From contig CM059445.1 of NCBI GenBank assembly GCA_030390025.1, positions 40,176,001 through 40,240,000 on the forward strand: DNA of 64,000 nucleotides, read 5' to 3'. Below, piece after piece: positions 7,063-63,644 of this stretch (within the stretch, counting starts at the first letter, position 1; every line of letters starts with the position of its first letter). Both the position numbers and the translations under genes were made by a program. The notes beneath the pieces are model-generated. The model was not told where the DNA came from and did no database searches. It was given only the letters and a program-made list of their open reading frames with translations. This DNA comes from Squalus acanthias. Its lineage: Eukaryota.

Positions 7063-9510
7063 TCAATCAAGATGCTTAGGAACAGTGACTGAAAAGAACA
7101 ATTAATTGGCTTTGAGGTGTTTTGGGATGCCCTGAGGATGTCAAAGCTGTTCTTTAAATGCAAGAAATTTCCAGTAACATTCTTTTAAAAGCCACTTTTG
7201 CACCTGTTGTGGATACAGTGCAGCCGGTACAAAGGCAAATGTGCAGGACTACATCCTCACGCCAGTTTCACGCAGTTTATCCGACCTCAATGAGCTGTCA
7301 CATTAGTTACCTCACTCCCAAAATATATAGCAGTGTCGGTGCAAGCCAGATTTTTTTTTAGTGTTGTGAAAATGATCTTGTACATCAGTTGAATTCAGGG
7401 CAGAATTGGTTTTCTCTTCCCTTTATTTGTTCTTAATTTCCAAGAATTGTATGCAGGATAACTATCATTAATTGCTTGGTTTAGTGCAAGTGATTAAATC
7501 CAGCAAAAGGTATAATTTGCTGATCTTTAAATTTTTAGTATTCTTGACTGTTTGATACTTCTTACTAATGGAGGACATTTGTGATGAAAACAAAATGAAT
7601 TCTTCTTTGGGGAATAGCTAACTTTAAAAAAGGCATCTTTAACTTTTTTAGGGGGAGGTTTACAAGGGATGCTTTTATTAAGTTTGGTGGGCTCCAGCAA
7701 GTTTTAAAGAATAGCTGAGAAGCAGGAAGCTACTCAGCTTAAACATTCACAGGCCTTTCTAAGTAATGAGAAATAGGATTCAATTTATTACCATTGGTTC
7801 ATTTATTCGATTTGCAATTTGATAAAGTCAGATGGAAGTTAAGAATATTGGAAAATGTTTAAACATAATCTCACTGAATTGAGGAAATACAATTGTTTGT
7901 GATTTTTTTTTAAAGTCCATATTGCGCTTGGCTAAGTGAGGGAAGTTGCTACTGGGAAATGGATCATTTCCAATTTTGGATTTCAAGCAATCACAAGTCA
8001 GTTTGTAGCATCATTCAATGCAGAGTGAAGTCCCAACAAAGTGACTCAGCCCCAAACTCAGAGAGTGCTGGCTATTGTATTGTGGCCTGTTTCCAAGAGT
8101 GCCCAGCAAAGAGGGAGGGGAGGGGAGGAGAGGGGGGAGGAAATAGCCGAAGCTGCACCTTGAGATATCAGGCCGGGGCTGGGCAGGTACCAGTCCTAGC
8201 TGATTCGTGCATTAGGCCAAGGTCAGACAGAGTCACTGGGTGGGGATGGGAGGGGGGATTGGGGGAGAGGAGGAGAGGGGGGAGGGGAGGAGCTAGAATG
8301 GGTGCCCAGGAGCTCAGCGTCACAATTATTGCTGAATTTTAAGATGAAATGAAATAAAAATTAAAATGTAGCTGACCTGAGTGGGACTATTTGCTAATAC
8401 ATTAAGAGAAAAATTGAAGTTTTAAATGCAGCCAATTCTGGCGGAGGCTGCCGAGAGGTCTCGAATGTAAAAACATGACTTCGTCTTTAATTTTGCAGGT
8501 GAGAAGGGATGCAGGAGGCTTAAAGACAGCAAAAATTTTAAAAAATTAAGTATTTTAAAAAAAAGTTGAAATACATGTATGTTCCCTGAAGTAAAACCAA
8601 GATGGCTGACAGTCTCTGCCAATTTCCAGAAACCTAGGGAACTAGAGCTTGTGATGTTCCATCTGGGAACTTTGGGACATTAGGCCATCGGGACATCCTG
8701 AGGTCATGAAAGGTGCTATATAAATGCAAGTCTTTCTTTTCTTTCTAATGATGTAAGTGTGCAGTAGGCGTGATGGCTAGGAGCTTCTAACTTAGTAATG
8801 GGAAATCCATTAGCAGTGAGGCAAAGCAAGAATTGGGCTGAGGAACTAAGTTCATTCGGGGAATGTTAAATTACCTTTTTAGAGAGTGTGAGAGTGTTAT
8901 TGTAGAGAGAGCCTCCCAACTGGTTTATCTCTTCTGGTATTAAAAGTAGGGAGAATATCTTTTCCCTCAGTTGTAATTTATTGACTAATAATGTTCCTCA
9001 CATGAATGTGTAATTTGGGTTAATCTATGTGTTTTAGTATTTCAGTAATTTTATGATATAAGCATAAGCCCACAACTTGCTATCACCTACATTATTTAAA
9101 TGTAGTTCGCTGTCTACTAAAATCAGGTATGAAAATGCAATTGTTATTGTACTGGATTGGCAACCTAAAGGTCATGAGTTCAAATCCCATTATGTCAAGT
9201 CATGAAATTGAATTGAATAAATTTGGTCATTTGTGGCTCGTCACTCATGCTGAACATGAGTCACCCGAGTCACTCGTGTTCAGCACCTTCTGTGAGTCTT
9301 CTAGGTTGGCACAGGTTTTAAAGTGTATCATTCCAAACCTATCTGATGACTTCCCTAATGTACATACCCTGTGAGTAGTAATAACTGAAGAAAAGTGAAA
9401 TTCTGATGCCCTGACTTTTGCACATAACTTGGTGAGATCAAGACAACCTGAATGAAGTGATATTGTTTTCAAATACTGAATATGCTCTTTATCCATTTTT
9501 TTTAAAACAG

Positions 9511-9807
9511 CGAGTCAGCATAAAGAACAGATTGCTACATCTGGCAAAGAGGGGGTGCTGACGTGCATCGCCCCTTTCAGGGCTGAAGTTGAGGAAACTA
9601 TTGTGTACTGGAAAAATAACTCTGACTTTATTTGCTATGTAAAAACCAAAGAAATCAAATGTGAAGGATTGCAGCATGATGCAGCTAAAGGAATAATGAC
9701 TTTAACTATCCCAGAATTAACTTTATCAGATACTGGAAAATATACCTGCAGCATCTTCACTAAAAACAATACCCATGAATGCAACATTAATCTGGTTGTA
9801 AAAGTTG
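9511..9807 (+). CDS. Gene A coding exon 2: V-type Ig domain (99 codons)
   Basis: Acceptor ttttttttaaaacag| and donor G|gtaagt, phase 1/1, 297 nt; GKEGVLTC...VYWK...TLTIPELTLSDTGKYTC...INLVV carries the canonical Cys, Trp and DxGxYxC. Confidence 0.92.
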
Positions 9808-11182
9808 GTAAGTTCTTTTTTCATAAATATTGGGTGATAGGTTAAGGTTTATATTTCAGGAGGTGTTAGCCCATTGTTAGAAATCAGGGGTGTTCAAAAT
9901 GTATGTGGTTTTGTGGATAAAACTGTGACATGAGTAATGCTGTATTTACATGATTGTATTAGAACTAGAGACAGAAGTCTCTCAGACTAGTCTTAGAATA
10001 ATTAGATAGATGCGTAGAATCTGCCTGTGTTTTGGTTCCCTGCGGATGTTATAGCATTCTGCAGTGTGACGGTCATAAATAATCTTGTTTTCAAGTTAGG
10101 ATTTCAACCTTGCTTCTGTTTCTCTAATTTGACCAACCAAGGCCCAACGTTCTATTTCTTCCATTACTGCTAATAACCATTTTATAATGCTAAGGTAGGA
10201 TTTTGACTTTGTTTAACAAAACTGCTTTAAAATGCATAATTTAACCAGTGTATGAGAATAGAATAGAAGATATCTTTGGGAATTTAATGATTCATTCCAT
10301 GGTACAATAGTCTGATAATGAAATAGTTCGTTTTGCATAGCTAAAGCTGCATGAACAGCATGAACATAAATAACTGATAACAAGCAGTTACGAACATCTG
10401 ATGGCCAAGAATGGCATGCCCGACTCCAAACTAGGGAGGATAGAGACACGAGAGATAAGACACGAATTCCAAAGGAAGAACCTTCAGAAAGATTAAACAA
10501 TAAGACAAATTGAATGAGGTAATGAGACCCCCTTTTGGGGAGGGCTTTCATCCAAGAACCAAGACAAAGAACTTGAGCTGTCATTGGGTGATGAGGTTTT
10601 AGAGAAACCTCTATAGATTAAATAGTCTTGTCAATAACTTGGCCTCAGGCCCACCCCTAAAAAGAGAATAAAAGTGACACCCCAAGGGCTTTCCCACACA
10701 GACGGTGGAGGGGAGAGCCAAAGAGAAGTTGGGCTGGTCGAACGCTCTTTTGAGAGTGATCCCATGCTCACCATCGAAGGCCCGAGAGCATTTATAGTCC
10801 ACTGTTCCCTTGGAATGACATTCCTGAACTGCCTGCTTTTCAGAAACTTTCCATTATGCTTCATGCAGCATTTGACCATTGATGTTTAGACTTTTTTTAT
10901 TATGACTCGGTCCCATTTTCCAACTAGATGTTCCACAGATTCCCTTCTGAGAAATTTAAACTGGAACTACCTGCTGCATCTGAGAGCCTGCTCCACATAT
11001 CTACTACTTGAGAACTCTATACTGGTGTCCTTAGTTCTTTGCTCGCAGTCCAAGTTAAATAACTTGCATTATCCACTCCCCTCACGGTTTATTTATTATT
11101 TGAACTTGAATCATGTCTGCTCTGAATCTTCTTTTCTGCAGTGCAGATCACTTCAGTTTTATAAATCTCTCCTCATAATGTT

Positions 11183-44278: not shown

Positions 44279-44378
44279 TCAGAATTCTGTTGTTGTTATT
44301 TTGTCCTTATGGGCATCAACATCTTCGACTGTGGCACTTTCGACCAATCTCCCTTGGTTCTCGTGTTGCTTTGAATTC
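44279..44378 (-). CDS. Gene B exon 7 (last): cytoplasmic tail RNSKQHENQGRLVESATVEDVDAHKDKITTTEF*
   Basis: Acceptor catttcttttctcattag|, phase 2 matching the 25-nt microexon; open for 32 codons to TGA. Confidence 0.75.
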
Positions 44379-46695: not shown

Positions 46696-46906
46696 TGTCT
46701 AGCAAAGTGCAAAAGGAAGCCAGGCTGTGGAGACAGCCACTGGTCATTCAGAGTCTGAGGTTTACAACTTCCTGAACTGTACACTGCAATGATAAAGGTT
46801 TGTTGCTTGGTGCTTGTATGTGTGCATGTTATTTGGTGCAAATTATGTCACAGTTGTTTAATCTATCATTTATACTGAAAGAGTAACAGGTTCGGTTGTG
46901 ACTTAC

Positions 46907-46931
46907 CTACAGTTGCAAGGGCTGTCCCGAT
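46907..46931 (-). CDS. Gene B exon 6: 25-nt cytoplasmic microexon DRDSPCNC(R)
   Basis: Near-consensus sites attcttctcattccacag| and AG|gtaagt; phase 1 to phase 2. Confidence 0.75.
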
Positions 46932-48022
46932 CTGTGGAATGAGAAGAATTATGTATTATTAAGAAAATTCTGCACTCTTTATATGCTTCATTATTGTGGC
47001 ATTTGGGAGGTTATTTCTTAAAGGTCCGTTTGATTATTATTGCATTGCAAGCCCTATTTTATACACTTCTGGTTATCGTTTCTGCATTGTCTTGATGCAT
47101 CAGTTGTTGCTGGTGTTTGGTGTTTTTTTGTTTGCTTTGCAACACTGTTGCTGCAGAATCCTTTGCCCACCACACTCTTGCTGATTGCTACTATTTTACA
47201 GGCAGTGTGCTCATTTTTCAGCATGAGAATTCCTTTTCGGAATTCCTATGGTGCTCCTAGATTTAGAAGAGGAAGCTAAGAAAATCAGGCATACTTTCAC
47301 CTGAGGCATTTGGTCCATTCTTGTCCTTGTTGCAGGAGCTACATGTTCAGGTCTTGGCAAACCTATCTACCTTTATTGTCTATAATTCACGATAGAGACT
47401 ATGACTGAATTATGCGGTCTTCTTGACCAGGACCTCCACACACAGGGACAGCTCTGTCGGGCATTGAAATGCAAAGCTACCATATCCTTCCAAGCCACCA
47501 CTTGATACTACAGTCCGGATGAAATCTCAGATTTCTTTAATGAAATAAATTGGCTTACTACATGTAAGCACATCTCTTAACCACCTCCACAATGACTGTG
47601 CATTGCTAAAAATTTTCAGAAATGTGTATTTTTTTCCCCAGCTTAAGCCCCTGTATTTCAGAACAAATTGAACATCTACACCTTTCTATTAATATTTATG
47701 TTTACAACCATCCTTTTAAATGACCATTTCATTTGATGCAGAGATTCAGCACTGAATAGCATGCTCATCCATCATCTGTGACATGCTATCTCTGCGACAC
47801 TTCATTTACTACATCTTGCAACCACTCTATACAACTGTAATAATGGTGTTGACTATCATTTTCCCATGACCAATCCTTATTGAGCAGGTTTGATGGCTTG
47901 ATTTTTTTGCTCATTCCAAATTCTCTTAACTAAACCAAATCACATCTAGTGGTGAATGAGTTAATGCCTATTAAGACTGTCACTTCACATTTGTGCTTCT
48001 CGTCAGCTATTGGTTAATTTAC

Positions 48023-48106
48023 CTTTCCATTTAATGCCCCAGATCAGTAATAAAATTACAGACACCGCAAAGATTGGCACTGATACAGATCGGACAGGAA
48101 AACTAC
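48023..48106 (-). CDS. Gene B exon 5: transmembrane SSFPVRSVSVPIFAVSVILLLIWGIKWK
   Basis: Acceptor ttttctgttccttcacag| and donor AAG|gtaaat; 84 nt, phase 1/1; hydrophobic run followed by a KWK stop-transfer. Confidence 0.85.
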
Positions 48107-50039
48107 CTGTGAAGGAACAGAAAAGTAGTTTGAGTTTCTCATGATCTGCTTCAGTGTAAAAAAATGGTGACAAATACTAGCTAAATTGCATTCCTGGTGA
48201 ACTGACTCAATATAGTAATATCTTCAAGATTTGTGAATTAAATTTCATTTTCTCCATTAGTGCCAGTGCAGGATCTCCGTCCCACTGTGCAGGAGGTAGG
48301 AATAGGTCAGTCCCGATTTCTACAATTCAGTAGGTCTTAGCCACGTAATATTACTATTTTAAGCTTAGTACAAACATCAGACCTGCATTACAGATAAAGT
48401 TATATTCACCAACACTGCTAATCTATCTGTATTTGAGTTGCTTTCCATCAATCCAGCTATTTTTTTTCAAGAATGATTGATATGCTGAAATATTGACTTC
48501 AGCCCTCGTGACATTTGTGCCTGGTGATCTAGGGCATGTTTATATACATATTCTAGAATCTTGGATATGATACACACTTCCATACATGTTGAATCACACT
48601 TTTAATATCAGCATTTAACATTGAAAATCCATAGGAAATATTTACTGTATAATGGAAGTCAACATTTATAATGGCAAAACTTGACCTAAATATAAACAAT
48701 TCACCATTAACAATTTGTCGTGAACCAATCAAATCATTCAAAATGCTTTTGAAAATAATTTCATCCACTTTTTTCCCCTCTGTAACTAAAATTTCTAATG
48801 TCCAAAATAAAGTTTTAAAGAAAAGAAATTAAAATTACATATTTCACAATAACATAATTAACTTTACCCACTAAGTTAACTTTTGATATCTTATTTGAAT
48901 TTTTCCTTCAAGGCCTGGGAATCAATGAGACTTTTTTAAATTTTACCTCACACCTGATGGAAACATTTTCAACCGCATCTGTGCATTTTGAGCATGTGCA
49001 GTTGGCAGAATTGTCGAACATGCAATCTGTGCATCAAGATGAGTTGATGCCCCTAATTTTGTCAGGATTTTAGAGATTGTACATTAACTTGTAGGTAAGT
49101 TATGTTTTTGAGAACACAAGCAAAGTTAGTGCTGTTGAGAGAGAAGAAGGATTAAATACTACGATGGCAGAGATGAATTATACTGAGATCTCTGAGGCCA
49201 GCACAAGCAGCTCAAAGAGAGATGAGACCACAAACTCTACTACGTTGATTTGAAAGAACAAGTTTGGAAAAGATGAAGGAATATTGCTAATGTTGTTAAA
49301 CTGCGAGCTTATCAGCAATGAACTGAATTAGCTAGTCTTAATATATCCGACATACTAACTATTCAAAGCTGTTAACTTGGCAGCTATATATGAAATCTAG
49401 CCTAAAGAAACCTTGCTGTATGTTAATCTTGGACCTTAAGTGTAATATCAACTTCTAATAAGTAGAGCCCAACTTATATTGATTTACTGTGATCCATTCA
49501 AACTGCTGTTGTAACCTCACATACTAATTGTCAGTTAATAACATCTACTCAAGTACCTTGTGTACTCATAATGTTTAACATTAAAATGCTGCTAATTGTA
49601 TTATCATAAGTATATTAATAATGAATTGTTAGTTCATGATTTCATTGCCTAACTTTCTCTTTTTGAGGTTATCTCCTTCCGTCAGTAGTGTACTGGCCCT
49701 CTGAAAGATGGTAATCCTCTAGATATGGATGGTAAATCACCAGATGATTTTTTTTGATGGGGAATTAAGGTGAAGAAGTTAAGGAGTCATCTGGTCCTTT
49801 TCTTAGGTACTATATCTTGCATGGTTTATGGCCTTACTGATCACAGAGTTAATTTTCCTACAGGTCTGTATACTGGAGAATTAAATCATCTTAGTTTGAC
49901 ATGTGAAAAGGCATTAGAAAGACAAAAGATGAGTTAATGTTTTAACTTTATAATAAATTAATCTTGTTTCAGTTTGTTCTACACTAAGAATTCATAATGA
50001 AGAAACATTCCCTTTTGCAGGTAGCATCATTGCACTTAC

Positions 50040-50357
50040 TTTTCCAACCAGATGTTATGTATATTCCTACAGCAAGTTCTTTCAAGCCATATTTATTTTC
50101 TGCTCTGCAAATATACTCTCCATTGTCTGAATCATCAACACTCCTTTTCGTCAAGCCAGAACTGTTTACTCCAGCTTCCAATTGTATGCTTTGCCCCAAT
50201 AATTTCTTTTGCCAGATAACTATGGGTTCTGGGTTACTGTGCGCTGTACATTTTAGTTCAAGAAATGACTGGGGCGTAACATGGATGCTGTCTTGGAGCA
50301 GTGGTTGAAGCTGATCTGAATCAGAAGTCCTGTAACGTATGATGGGCTGTGGACCAT
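50040..50357 (-). CDS. Gene B exon 4: I-set/C2 Ig domain
   Basis: 318 nt, phase 1/1; YGPQP...LELKCTAHSNPEPIVIW...DDSDNGEYICRAENKYG; canonical splice sites. Confidence 0.92.
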
Positions 50358-51239
50358 CTGAATCAGAACAATGGAAATGAAAAGTAATTAGTCATATAGG
50401 CAGCTTCGATAAAGCCTTGTAGAATTGTGTACATCTTGTCAGAGTACAGACAAAGCTGACTGGAAATTGAAACATCAATTGCAGCTATGTCCTTTCTGTA
50501 TAAATATGTATTGTGTATTACAATATTGATCCAAGGGCACAAAACTGTAAAAGAAAAGGACTGGGGTAACTGTTCTTCTTGATTACACTTATAAAAGGAC
50601 TAATTGTTAAAATGGAATTCTGTTTACATTTATTAGATGTGTATTCCTAACCAAAAGACAGGCAGACAAACCACTCCCAAGTTGACATCACTCGCAAACC
50701 AGTCTCTGTAATGTGCAAGAATAACACAGATTGACTTACCCTCCAATTTCCCCTCCCTTCTTTCTTGTGGTGGTATCTCTCCTGACCATCATGTTGTGAT
50801 CAGGAACATGTGAAGTCATACATGGAGAACTACGTTCTATCACTCTGACACAGCAAATCGGTCTGACAAGAATTTTTATGAATAGGAAAAAGCCCAACTG
50901 ACCAGGCCCATTTTAGTAGATGGACATCACCTTCTCAAGATTTCCCTCAATCTCTGTGTCTTCAGAAATACATCTAATAGGTTCTTGAGATCATTTATAT
51001 TATAATTCAGAAGTCTTTCCTTGTATTTTGTTTCATAAATTTATATCCCTTGTTTGAAAATGTCCCACTGACTTCCCCTTTTATTCCTACCTTTCTCATT
51101 TTTAATCTGGATCCCTTGGTATTTGAACCCTTCACCATAGTGAATAGTTTGCACAGATCAGATTTATCATTTTCATTAACATTATTGAAAATATCATTCA
51201 GGTTGCTTTGTAAACTTAAACATAAATTGCGGAAACCTG

Positions 51240-52189: not shown

Positions 52190-52540
52190 AATTCACATTT
52201 AGGGTTATACTTTTTATTATCCACTCTTTACTTGTCGTATGAAGGACCTGACAGGTACAGATTGTCCTATGGTCTTCTTGCAAGATGGGCTTAAAAATCA
52301 TTTGACTGGTAACATTAAATGTGCCATCCGAATTCCTTAAGGTGGGCAGTCTAGTCGTATATCTAATTTTATCATCTGCTTCTGAAGGTTGAGCATTGTG
52401 AGAAATGGTTTGATCTTGGTGTAGCCATTTAATAGAGATATTCTGAGGATAAAATCCACCAGCGAGGCACTTCACAATCGACTCATGCCCGGCTACTAGT
52501 TCTTCCAGAGTAATAGAAATTGCTGGAGGAGATGGTGGGA
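52190..52540 (-). CDS. Gene B exon 3: C1-set Ig domain
   Basis: 351 nt, phase 1/1; CLAGGFYPQNISIKW...NSDGTFNVTS...TCQVLH are C1 hallmarks. Confidence 0.95.
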
Positions 52541-54467: not shown

Positions 54468-54815
54468 CATCGACATGCAATCGTGTTCCTGGTCCTCTTC
54501 TCTCTAATGGCGGGTAGACAGTTGGTATCTTCACCACACAGGTATAATTATAATCAGAGAACTTGAAAGGAACATTTTCAATCTTCAATGATGCAACACA
54601 GTGCTTAAAACCACCCAGAGCAATGTCAAAAGTGCAGTTATGCTCATGACTTTCATTGGGAGTATCAGCGATTCCTGGAGGGCTTCTGTCCCAGTTTGTA
54701 TGGATCCAATCAGTCTCATTTGCAGTGTAATTAAAGATACAGTTTAACGTGACTGATTTTCCTCGCAGGACGCTGACCAGATGTGGCTGAGTCACCTCCC
54801 CAATCACCGGATGAC
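54468..54815 (-). CDS. Gene B exon 2: germline-joined VJ-type Ig domain
   Basis: 348 nt, phase 1/1; EVTQP...GKSVTLNC...W...SLKIENV...YTC...RGPGTRLHV (GxGT J motif in the same exon). Confidence 0.94.
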
Positions 54816-57413: not shown

Positions 57414-57740
57414 TATAAATCTCTAAGCATGTCCTCTTCTGTCTACAACCAGAAAGGGCATTGATTATCATCACCACACATTGTATGTATAATGAGAGTC
57501 TTGGAAATAAACTGTCAATCTTCAGCAATCCAACAATTGCTGCTCAGACCACCTGATTCAAGGTCAGAAATGCAGGTCACGCTATTCCCCTTTAAAATAT
57601 CCGATTGTCAAAGTAAAGCCCCTGTACCAGGCTGTGTGGATCCAGTCAGCATAATTAAATATACAGTTCAATATGACAAACTGAACTCTCAAGGGCACTG
57701 ACTAGATGCTGCAGAGTCACCTCCTCAACAACCAGGACAC
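57414..57740 (-). pseudogene. Frameshifted duplicate V exon in gene B intron 1
   Basis: Successive frames give EEVTLQHLVSAL / VILNCIFNYADWIHTAW / TCISDLESGG / LKIDS / CVVMI, collinear with exon 2; upstream intron sequence is also homologous; the donor is lost. Confidence 0.88.
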
Positions 57741-57870
57741 CTGATGGGATCAAATGTCTCATCTGCTGAACATAATCTGAGACCTGATCGCACACTTTTA
57801 CCTGTAATATTATAAAGAAAATCACAATGACAAAATTTTTAAAAAAAACAAGGAACACCATGAACACAGA

Positions 57871-63586: not shown

Positions 63587-63644
63587 CTGTTACACCAGTC
63601 TGTGTCAGAAGGAACACCAACAGCTGCAGTAATATGCTCTCCAT
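63587..63644 (-). CDS. Gene B exon 1: signal peptide MESILLQLLVFLLTQTGVT(G)
   Basis: 58 nt; ATG followed by G; hydrophobic core; phase-1 donor CAG|gttagt matching the phase-1 V exon. Confidence 0.85.

Follow-up and report, generated by a model that had tools for sequence, protein, structure and literature searches.

A cysteine-bearing microexon in a predicted activating V-C1-I receptor gene of Squalus acanthias

A 25-nt exon in the genome of Squalus acanthias encodes two cysteines (PCNCR) shortly after a transmembrane (TM) segment, and a sequence-only reading of the surrounding 64,000 nt (the window, i.e., the whole stretch analysed here) had taken it for a possible Lck-binding tail like those of the co-receptors CD4 and CD8alpha, with palmitoylation as the simpler alternative. 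The locus raises the questions of whether this exon is used, what kind of receptor it belongs to, and what its cysteines do.

The microexon and its gene

The gene is composed of the following seven coding exons:

63587..63644, minus strand: leader exon for the signal peptide, with its ATG at 63644 and phase 0 to 1; resembles the leader of a paralogue and has no coverage in the aligned reads.
54468..54815, minus strand: V-set Ig exon; its G strand is J-like (GxGT), its YxC..IP..PP loop resembles that of the CD28 family, and it has a second Cys pair that is invariant (Pfam V-set E 1.1e-5; model pLDDT 85).
52190..52540, minus strand: C1-set Ig exon (Pfam C1-set E 6.6e-11; 75% identity to P0001, a protein of Pristiophorus japonicus).
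50040..50357, minus strand: I-set/C2-like Ig exon (Pfam I-set E 3.9e-10); contig 17 of sequencing run X4 shows its 3' part spliced onto the TM exon.
48023..48106, minus strand: TM exon, phase 1 to 1, with an arginine at position 2-4 of its best hydrophobic window (FPVRSVSVPIFAVSVILLLIWGI); covered by contig 17 of X4.
46907..46931, minus strand: microexon, 25 nt, phase 1 to 2, with the D-RDSPCNC-R cysteine cluster; backed by splice signals, joined frame, X4 contig and homologous peptides.
44279..44378, minus strand: last coding exon of 32 aa, which lacks tyrosine and closes with TEF-stop, a class I PDZ-binding-like end; the P0001 tail finds it by tblastn at E 2e-12, the genome has one copy of it, and its junction was not seen directly in reads.

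Joined in the order leader-V-C1-I-TM-microexon-last, these exons give one open frame of 427 aa with a single stop, all borders GT-AG and phases of 0-1-1-1-1-1-2 along the gene. The microexon itself is bordered by a polypyrimidine tract with a cag acceptor and by a gtaagt donor. Across the junctions, the tail reads ...IWGIKWK/DRDSPCNCR/NSKQ... and ends in TTTEF, giving 44 residues without tyrosine in which the two cysteines lie 9 and 11 residues past the last hydrophobic TM residue, in line with the earlier estimate of about 9 for PCNCR. Skipping of the microexon had been expected to shift the frame and replace the tail, and the computed product indeed carries a 27-aa tail free of cysteine. A scan of both strands of the window for look-alike microexons (length 3n+1, 16-43 nt, strong splice signals, open frame) returned five candidates, with CxC in the 46907..46931 exon only. 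The last exon was placed by tblastn using the tail of P0001; another candidate for it near 41200-41140 was dropped, as the orthologue tail matched 44378-44279. The window also holds an incomplete, decayed V-exon copy (57540-57741, minus strand), which lies upstream of the intact exon, and an unrelated Ig exon with weak V/I-set, Izumo-Ig and CD47-like scores that belongs to another gene (9480-9809, plus strand).

Six sequencing runs were found, none of them recorded as RNA, with X4 being RNA by the tool's guess. Four runs (X1, X3, X4 and X5) were aligned to 46720-50450, a stretch that does not include the last exon. X4 yielded one 221-nt contig (contig 17, depth 2.5) that matches 50037-50137 and 48023-48103 with zero differences, i.e., the I-TM splice. 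Its pieces account exactly for the depth in four bins and leave 0.52 over in the bin of the microexon (46845-46969); this equals 26 bases at 2.5, and a depth of 2.5 is listed at 46923. Twenty-six bases are the microexon plus one, compatible with a following exon that begins with G, as the one at 44378 does. However, the microexon piece is not among the rows listed, and depth is 0 at 46930, 2 bases from the end of the piece. On inclusion versus skipping, X4 provides a single low-depth, partly inferred observation and X5 no coverage of the exons; no skipping joint is among those listed for either run, which is not evidence that skipping is absent.

A homologous microexon peptide is present in four of the seven database proteins of the short-tail branch described below (P0001, P0012, P0009 and P0007, with exon borders inferred from the alignment), while the other three (P0008, P0010 and P0169) terminate ahead of it. 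Splice borders, the joined frame, the X4 contig and these peptides bear out the exon as first proposed: it is a real spliced post-TM exon of an intact V-C1-I receptor gene.

A paired family of V-C1-I receptors

Pfam assigns the three Ig exons to V-set, C1-set and I-set, with the third domain scoring I-set/Ig_3 and giving no C1 match; in the V domain, C25, C60, C72 and C92 are invariant and G107 and G109 nearly so. Three homologue searches returned 6, 4 and 6 proteins, every named one from a shark or ray. A profile search, whose results were dominated by multi-Ig proteins and of which six new short matches were examined, added proteins of Narcine, Rhinoraja, Heterodontus, Latimeria and Polyodon. 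The V-C1-I family thus ranges over sharks, rays, paddlefish and coelacanth, and its members have either a long tail with three tyrosine motifs or a short tail. In a 17-row tree built on the C1+I region (P0010, P0011, P0018, P0039, P0042 and isoforms omitted), the window gene and five elasmobranch short-tail proteins form one branch with support of 98/97, which a paddlefish protein joins at 89/85 on a long branch. The model of this paddlefish orthologue, automatically named SHPS-1-like, ends after the TM segment and is therefore without the microexon block.

A long-tail paralogue lies on the same contig, about 235 kb away on the opposite strand (G000:C22:40465408-40529760), and carries the ITIM-like motifs IYAIV, VSYADI and SEYSAI. 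The best among the scanned candidates for its post-TM exon has 28 nt, phase 1 to 2 and no cysteine (G000:C22:40505741-40505768), and is isolated between introns of ~29 kb and ~15 kb (G000:C22:40476728-40520610). None of ten long-tail proteins has a cysteine in the block matching the microexon; eight of them have one at the inner TM end instead. Judged from these sequences, a short phase 1-to-2 post-TM exon is a trait of the whole family. The sequence-only reading had treated the exon layout as a pointer to a co-receptor, which falls away because the ITIM paralogue has a cysteine-free exon of the same kind.

A second paralogue (G000:C22:40437314-40445975, plus strand) has a TM arginine, almost no tail and additional incomplete C1 exons. 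Two proteins similar to it, Pristiophorus P0006 and Latimeria P0120, cluster with the ITIM forms of their own species (100/100), so that Arg-type members originated, or were homogenised, on more than one occasion. In both paralogues, the V exon (G000:C22:40437314-40437663 and 40466117-40466465, plus strand) matches in two different frames and looks frameshifted in this assembly, be it by decay or assembly error. The neighbourhood further includes an inverted, internally deleted duplicate of the window gene (L036, G000:C22:40294447-40299775, plus strand) with the leader, bits of intron 1, the TM exon and the microexon at ~95-98% likeness. This duplicate is without V, C1, I or last exon, has glutamine in place of the TM arginine, and carries three cysteines in its microexon. 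Between the gene and the paralogues, G000:C22:40349000-40359000 (L053, L054) holds open-frame fragments like gag, RNase H and integrase of an LTR retroelement.

An arginine near the outer TM end is found in all six short-tail proteins with a TM segment and in none of the ten long-tail proteins, one of which has lysine; in the window gene, it occupies position 2-4 of the best 21-23-residue hydrophobic window. Receptors associating with Fc-gamma likewise have an arginine in the N-terminal TM segment (accessible part of PMC1440944). Given this arginine, the absence of a tail tyrosine and the ITIM-bearing neighbour, we predict that the window gene encodes the activating member of a receptor pair, coupled to FcR-gamma or CD3-zeta. 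The arginine's partners would then be the aspartates in a dimer of FcR-gamma or CD3-zeta, the source of ITAMs. All five complete short tails end in S/T-x-F/L (window gene: 44279-44290, minus strand), a class I PDZ-binding pattern that may engage a PDZ scaffold. The sequence-only reading, sound on the microexon, had overlooked the arginine in the TM segment, the ITIM-bearing partner and this PDZ-like end.

By domain plan or motifs, the window gene is not CD4, CD8, SIRP, Siglec or CD28. Its nearest working likeness is predicted to be an Fc-gamma-coupled paired receptor: like FcalphaRI and its kin, it combines an arginine in the N-terminal TM part and a short, tyrosine-free tail with an ITIM-type paralogue nearby. 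However, FcalphaRI-type receptors coupled to Fc-gamma have C2-type ectodomains, unlike the V-C1-I plan, the cysteine cluster and the PDZ-like end seen here. Structure searches gave generic three-Ig matches (MAG, CD22, nectins and SIRP-alpha) at 16-20% identity, and a fold search with the V domain returned antibody V domains only (E ~1e-6). With SIRPs, the family shares a J-like V domain followed by C1 as well as paired activating and inhibitory forms, and SIRP-alpha had the best TM-score among the matches listed in the fold search (0.48/0.61, identity ~19%). However, SIRPs are V-C1-C1, with an I-set third domain here, and activating SIRP uses a central lysine with DAP12. Siglecs are suggested by NCBI, which names most members "sialic acid-binding Ig-like lectin", by domains 1-3 of MAG and CD22 as top matches by Foldseek E-value, and by alignment of domains 2-3 with MAG and Siglec-8. 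Siglecs are defined by an essential arginine on strand F of the V domain and a B-E intra-sheet disulfide, whereas the V domain here has a canonical B-F disulfide, the GxGT strand and a strand F (YTCVVK) without arginine, so that the sialic-acid site is missing.

The V loop YxCxxKIPxxxPP...GxG resembles motifs of CD28, CTLA4 and CD28H (PMC11599192, accessible part), and CTLA4 and PD-1 clusters are among the atlas look-alikes (0.91-0.93). However, that source describes the CD28 family, as far as it is accessible, as single V-TM-tail proteins with tyrosine motifs, as opposed to three Ig domains and no tyrosine here. CD8alpha comes close in its V domain with a J-like strand, in the succession of a TM exon (phase 1), a short cysteine-motif exon (phase 2) and a last exon, and in a first cysteine 8-9 residues from the TM segment. 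That its motif sits on a short phase 1-to-2 post-TM exon, as the sequence-only reading had it, is confirmed by the accessible part of supplementary file 7 of PMC10768021, though by our own count on that alignment this exon, at ~31 nt (human) or ~40 nt (sharks), does not have 25 nt; the shared exon type is not diagnostic, being found in the cysteine-free ITIM paralogue too. CD8alpha differs further in its plan of V plus hinge, a different TM segment without arginine, a basic run before the motif and CxH in sharks. Neither the fixed Cx(C/H) spacing nor the ectodomains of CD4 and CD8alpha (four Ig or V-hinge) are found here. Rodent NKR-P1C shares the TM arginine, the FcR-gamma coupling (predicted here), an inhibitory ITIM sibling and a cytoplasmic dicysteine (PMC4041007, as far as accessible). 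However, NKR-P1 receptors are type II C-type lectins whose CxCP(R/H) was shown to bind Lck, and they are not homologous to the receptor here, a type I Ig protein whose motif is CNCR and whose spacing varies.

Candidate roles of the cysteines

The microexon peptide reads DRDSPCNCR in the window, DRYGPCNCR in Pristiophorus, DRYCPCNSR in Chiloscyllium plagiosum, GWCGPCNSG in Scyliorhinus torazame and DRCFLCNRR in Hemitrygon. C6-N7 and a count of two cysteines hold in all five species, with the second cysteine at position 8, 4 or 3. Conservation of CxC in orthologues is therefore mixed, with CNC (positions 6-8) in two species, CPC (4-6) in one and CxxC in two. Both CxxC models are 5'-incomplete and without V domain, possibly from decayed genes, and both whole-V models keep PCNCR. 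Nonetheless, the CxxC tails look constrained too, given that the genes form one branch and all five tails stay in frame with an S/T-x-F/L end. From these alignments, selection appears to preserve an anchor cysteine with one or more others close to it, and not a set distance between them.

In DNA runs X1 and X3 (~96% alike), a change at 46923 turns position 4 into cysteine (DRDCPCNCR), and the truncated duplicate in the same genome reads the same; the intact copy thus likely lost a third cysteine recently (Cys4 to Ser). We rejected the idea that the X1/X3 contigs stem from this duplicate, because only 9 of the 38 listed differences are common to it and the contigs cover the I exon that it is missing.

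Our preferred reading, in which we place roughly even confidence, is that the two cysteines serve as predicted S-palmitoylation sites of this predicted activating receptor. A zinc site shared by two proteins should hold its spacing, while two acylatable thiols near a membrane need not, and we therefore rank lipid attachment over a CD4/CD8-style grip on Lck for cysteines that shift position between species as their number holds. The alternative that the sequence-only reading had called simpler thus fits better than its main proposal. Acyl chains on these cysteines, at 9 and 11 residues from the membrane on its inner side, would anchor the short tail in the inner leaflet and direct the complex into the ordered membrane domains that hold Src-family kinases. 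In both CD4 and LAT, palmitoylation falls on a pair of cysteines spaced three apart (accessible part of PMC13270668). Against palmitoylation, the cysteines lie 6-11 residues from the TM segment across species, the same distance as the CD8alpha clasp. The palmitoylation cysteines of LAT and CD4 are nearer to the TM segment than those of the window receptor. The possible decay of the CxxC models also speaks against it, as does the Chiloscyllium motif RYCPC, which resembles RYCPH of shark CD4, itself with one basic residue in the five before its cysteine (PMC10768021, supplementary file 8).

The strongest rival, which we consider rather unlikely, has the cysteines clasp the CxxC of Lck through zinc, so that the receptor would bring its own kinase to its own ITAM adaptor like rodent NKR-P1C. 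CxC in three of five species and in X1/X3, exon phases and membrane distance that match CD8alpha, and the likeness of RYCPC to the shark CD4 motif speak for it, as do activating NKR-P1 receptors of rodents, which unite a TM arginine, FcR-gamma and an Lck-recruiting CxCP (PMC4041007, accessible part). A candidate partner is encoded in the genome: an Lck-like gene at G000:C16:53501808-53529693 (plus strand), located by its SH2 motif after two degenerate Lck-start patterns gave no match, keeps CxxC (CEQC) in its first coding exon (G000:C16:53501808), with following residues that are charged and not of the usual pattern. A predicted complex of this N-terminus (P0020) with residues 364-400 of the Pristiophorus tail and zinc scored 0.03 in two runs and bears neither way.

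However, two of five species have CxxC only, the CxC register moves between 6-8 and 4-6, and no proline follows the motif. The five tails have 0-1 K/R and up to 2 acidic residues in the five positions before C6 (with R/K after the motif) to face an acidic Lck N-terminus, as opposed to at least 2 K/R and no acid before the first cysteine in 13 of 13 CD8alpha tails (our own count on the accessible part of PMC10768021, supplementary file 7); shark CD4, too, has a single basic residue there. Moreover, the sharks' own co-receptors use CxH, and P0001, P0012, P0009 and P0007 gave no match to the Pfam CD4-tail family with E up to 10; this family has no match in the genome either, which is uninformative as shark CD4 differs. 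Of the proposed co-receptor-like tail, the real exon and its CD8alpha-like phases stand, and Lck binding is weakened by the variable spacing, the missing CD8-type basic run and the CxH of shark CD4 and CD8. That said, palmitoylation and an Lck clasp can coexist.

A broader form of the clasp, which we hold to be unlikely, sees the locus as an undescribed, old, non-rearranging V(J)-C1-I pair whose activating member would be a self-contained unit, with a TM arginine for an ITAM adaptor and a zinc- and Lck-clasping dicysteine that tolerates the step from CxC to CxxC. The ancestral dicysteine would then have been CPC or CPCNC, near RYCPH of shark CD4. If true, the receptor would be an Ig-family counterpart of NKR-P1C and would have a genuine Cys-Cys clasp, whereas CD4 and CD8 of the same lineage rely on CxH.

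It is quite improbable, in our view, that the cysteines link the receptor to a second copy of itself, or to another partner, by zinc or by a disulfide formed on activation, with CxC or CxxC both tolerated. Either spacing can bind zinc, and GPVI forms a cytoplasmic disulfide dimer. Two cysteines are always retained, and Zn-dependent CD4 and Lck homodimers are cited, by reference title, in PMC13270668 (accessible part). However, the cytosol is reducing, and the tail is predicted to be disordered (pLDDT <50 for residues 369-408 of P0001). Least probable of all is that the exon is a mere family spacer whose cysteines, perhaps except C6, drift without function, as the cysteine-free exon of the ITIM paralogue, single-base steps at positions 3, 4 and 8 and the recent Cys4-to-Ser change in the intact copy would allow, against which stand an invariant C6-N7 across sharks and a ray and two cysteines in all five species despite a differing second one.

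Implications for shark receptors

The literature searched, including by accession, gave no description of the V-C1-I family, with several subscription papers on shark VJ-C1 genes outside our reach. To our knowledge, NK-type activating receptors of sharks are poorly catalogued. For the bamboo shark gene, a term search of the accessible text of PMC11372145 and four of its supplements gave no expression entry, though genes may carry other identifiers there. VJ-C1 genes that do not rearrange are discussed as remnants of the precursors of antigen receptors (PMC10751288, accessible part).

On its own, the microexon is ordinary, and the paired-receptor family around it is the more useful finding. The exon exposes a paired family with J-like V and C1 domains in sharks, rays, paddlefish and coelacanth that automatic annotation mislabels as Siglec or SIRP. 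The CNC, CPC, CxxC and CPCNC tails moreover form a natural series, ready-made for telling the tolerance of an Lck clasp from the needs of palmitoylation.
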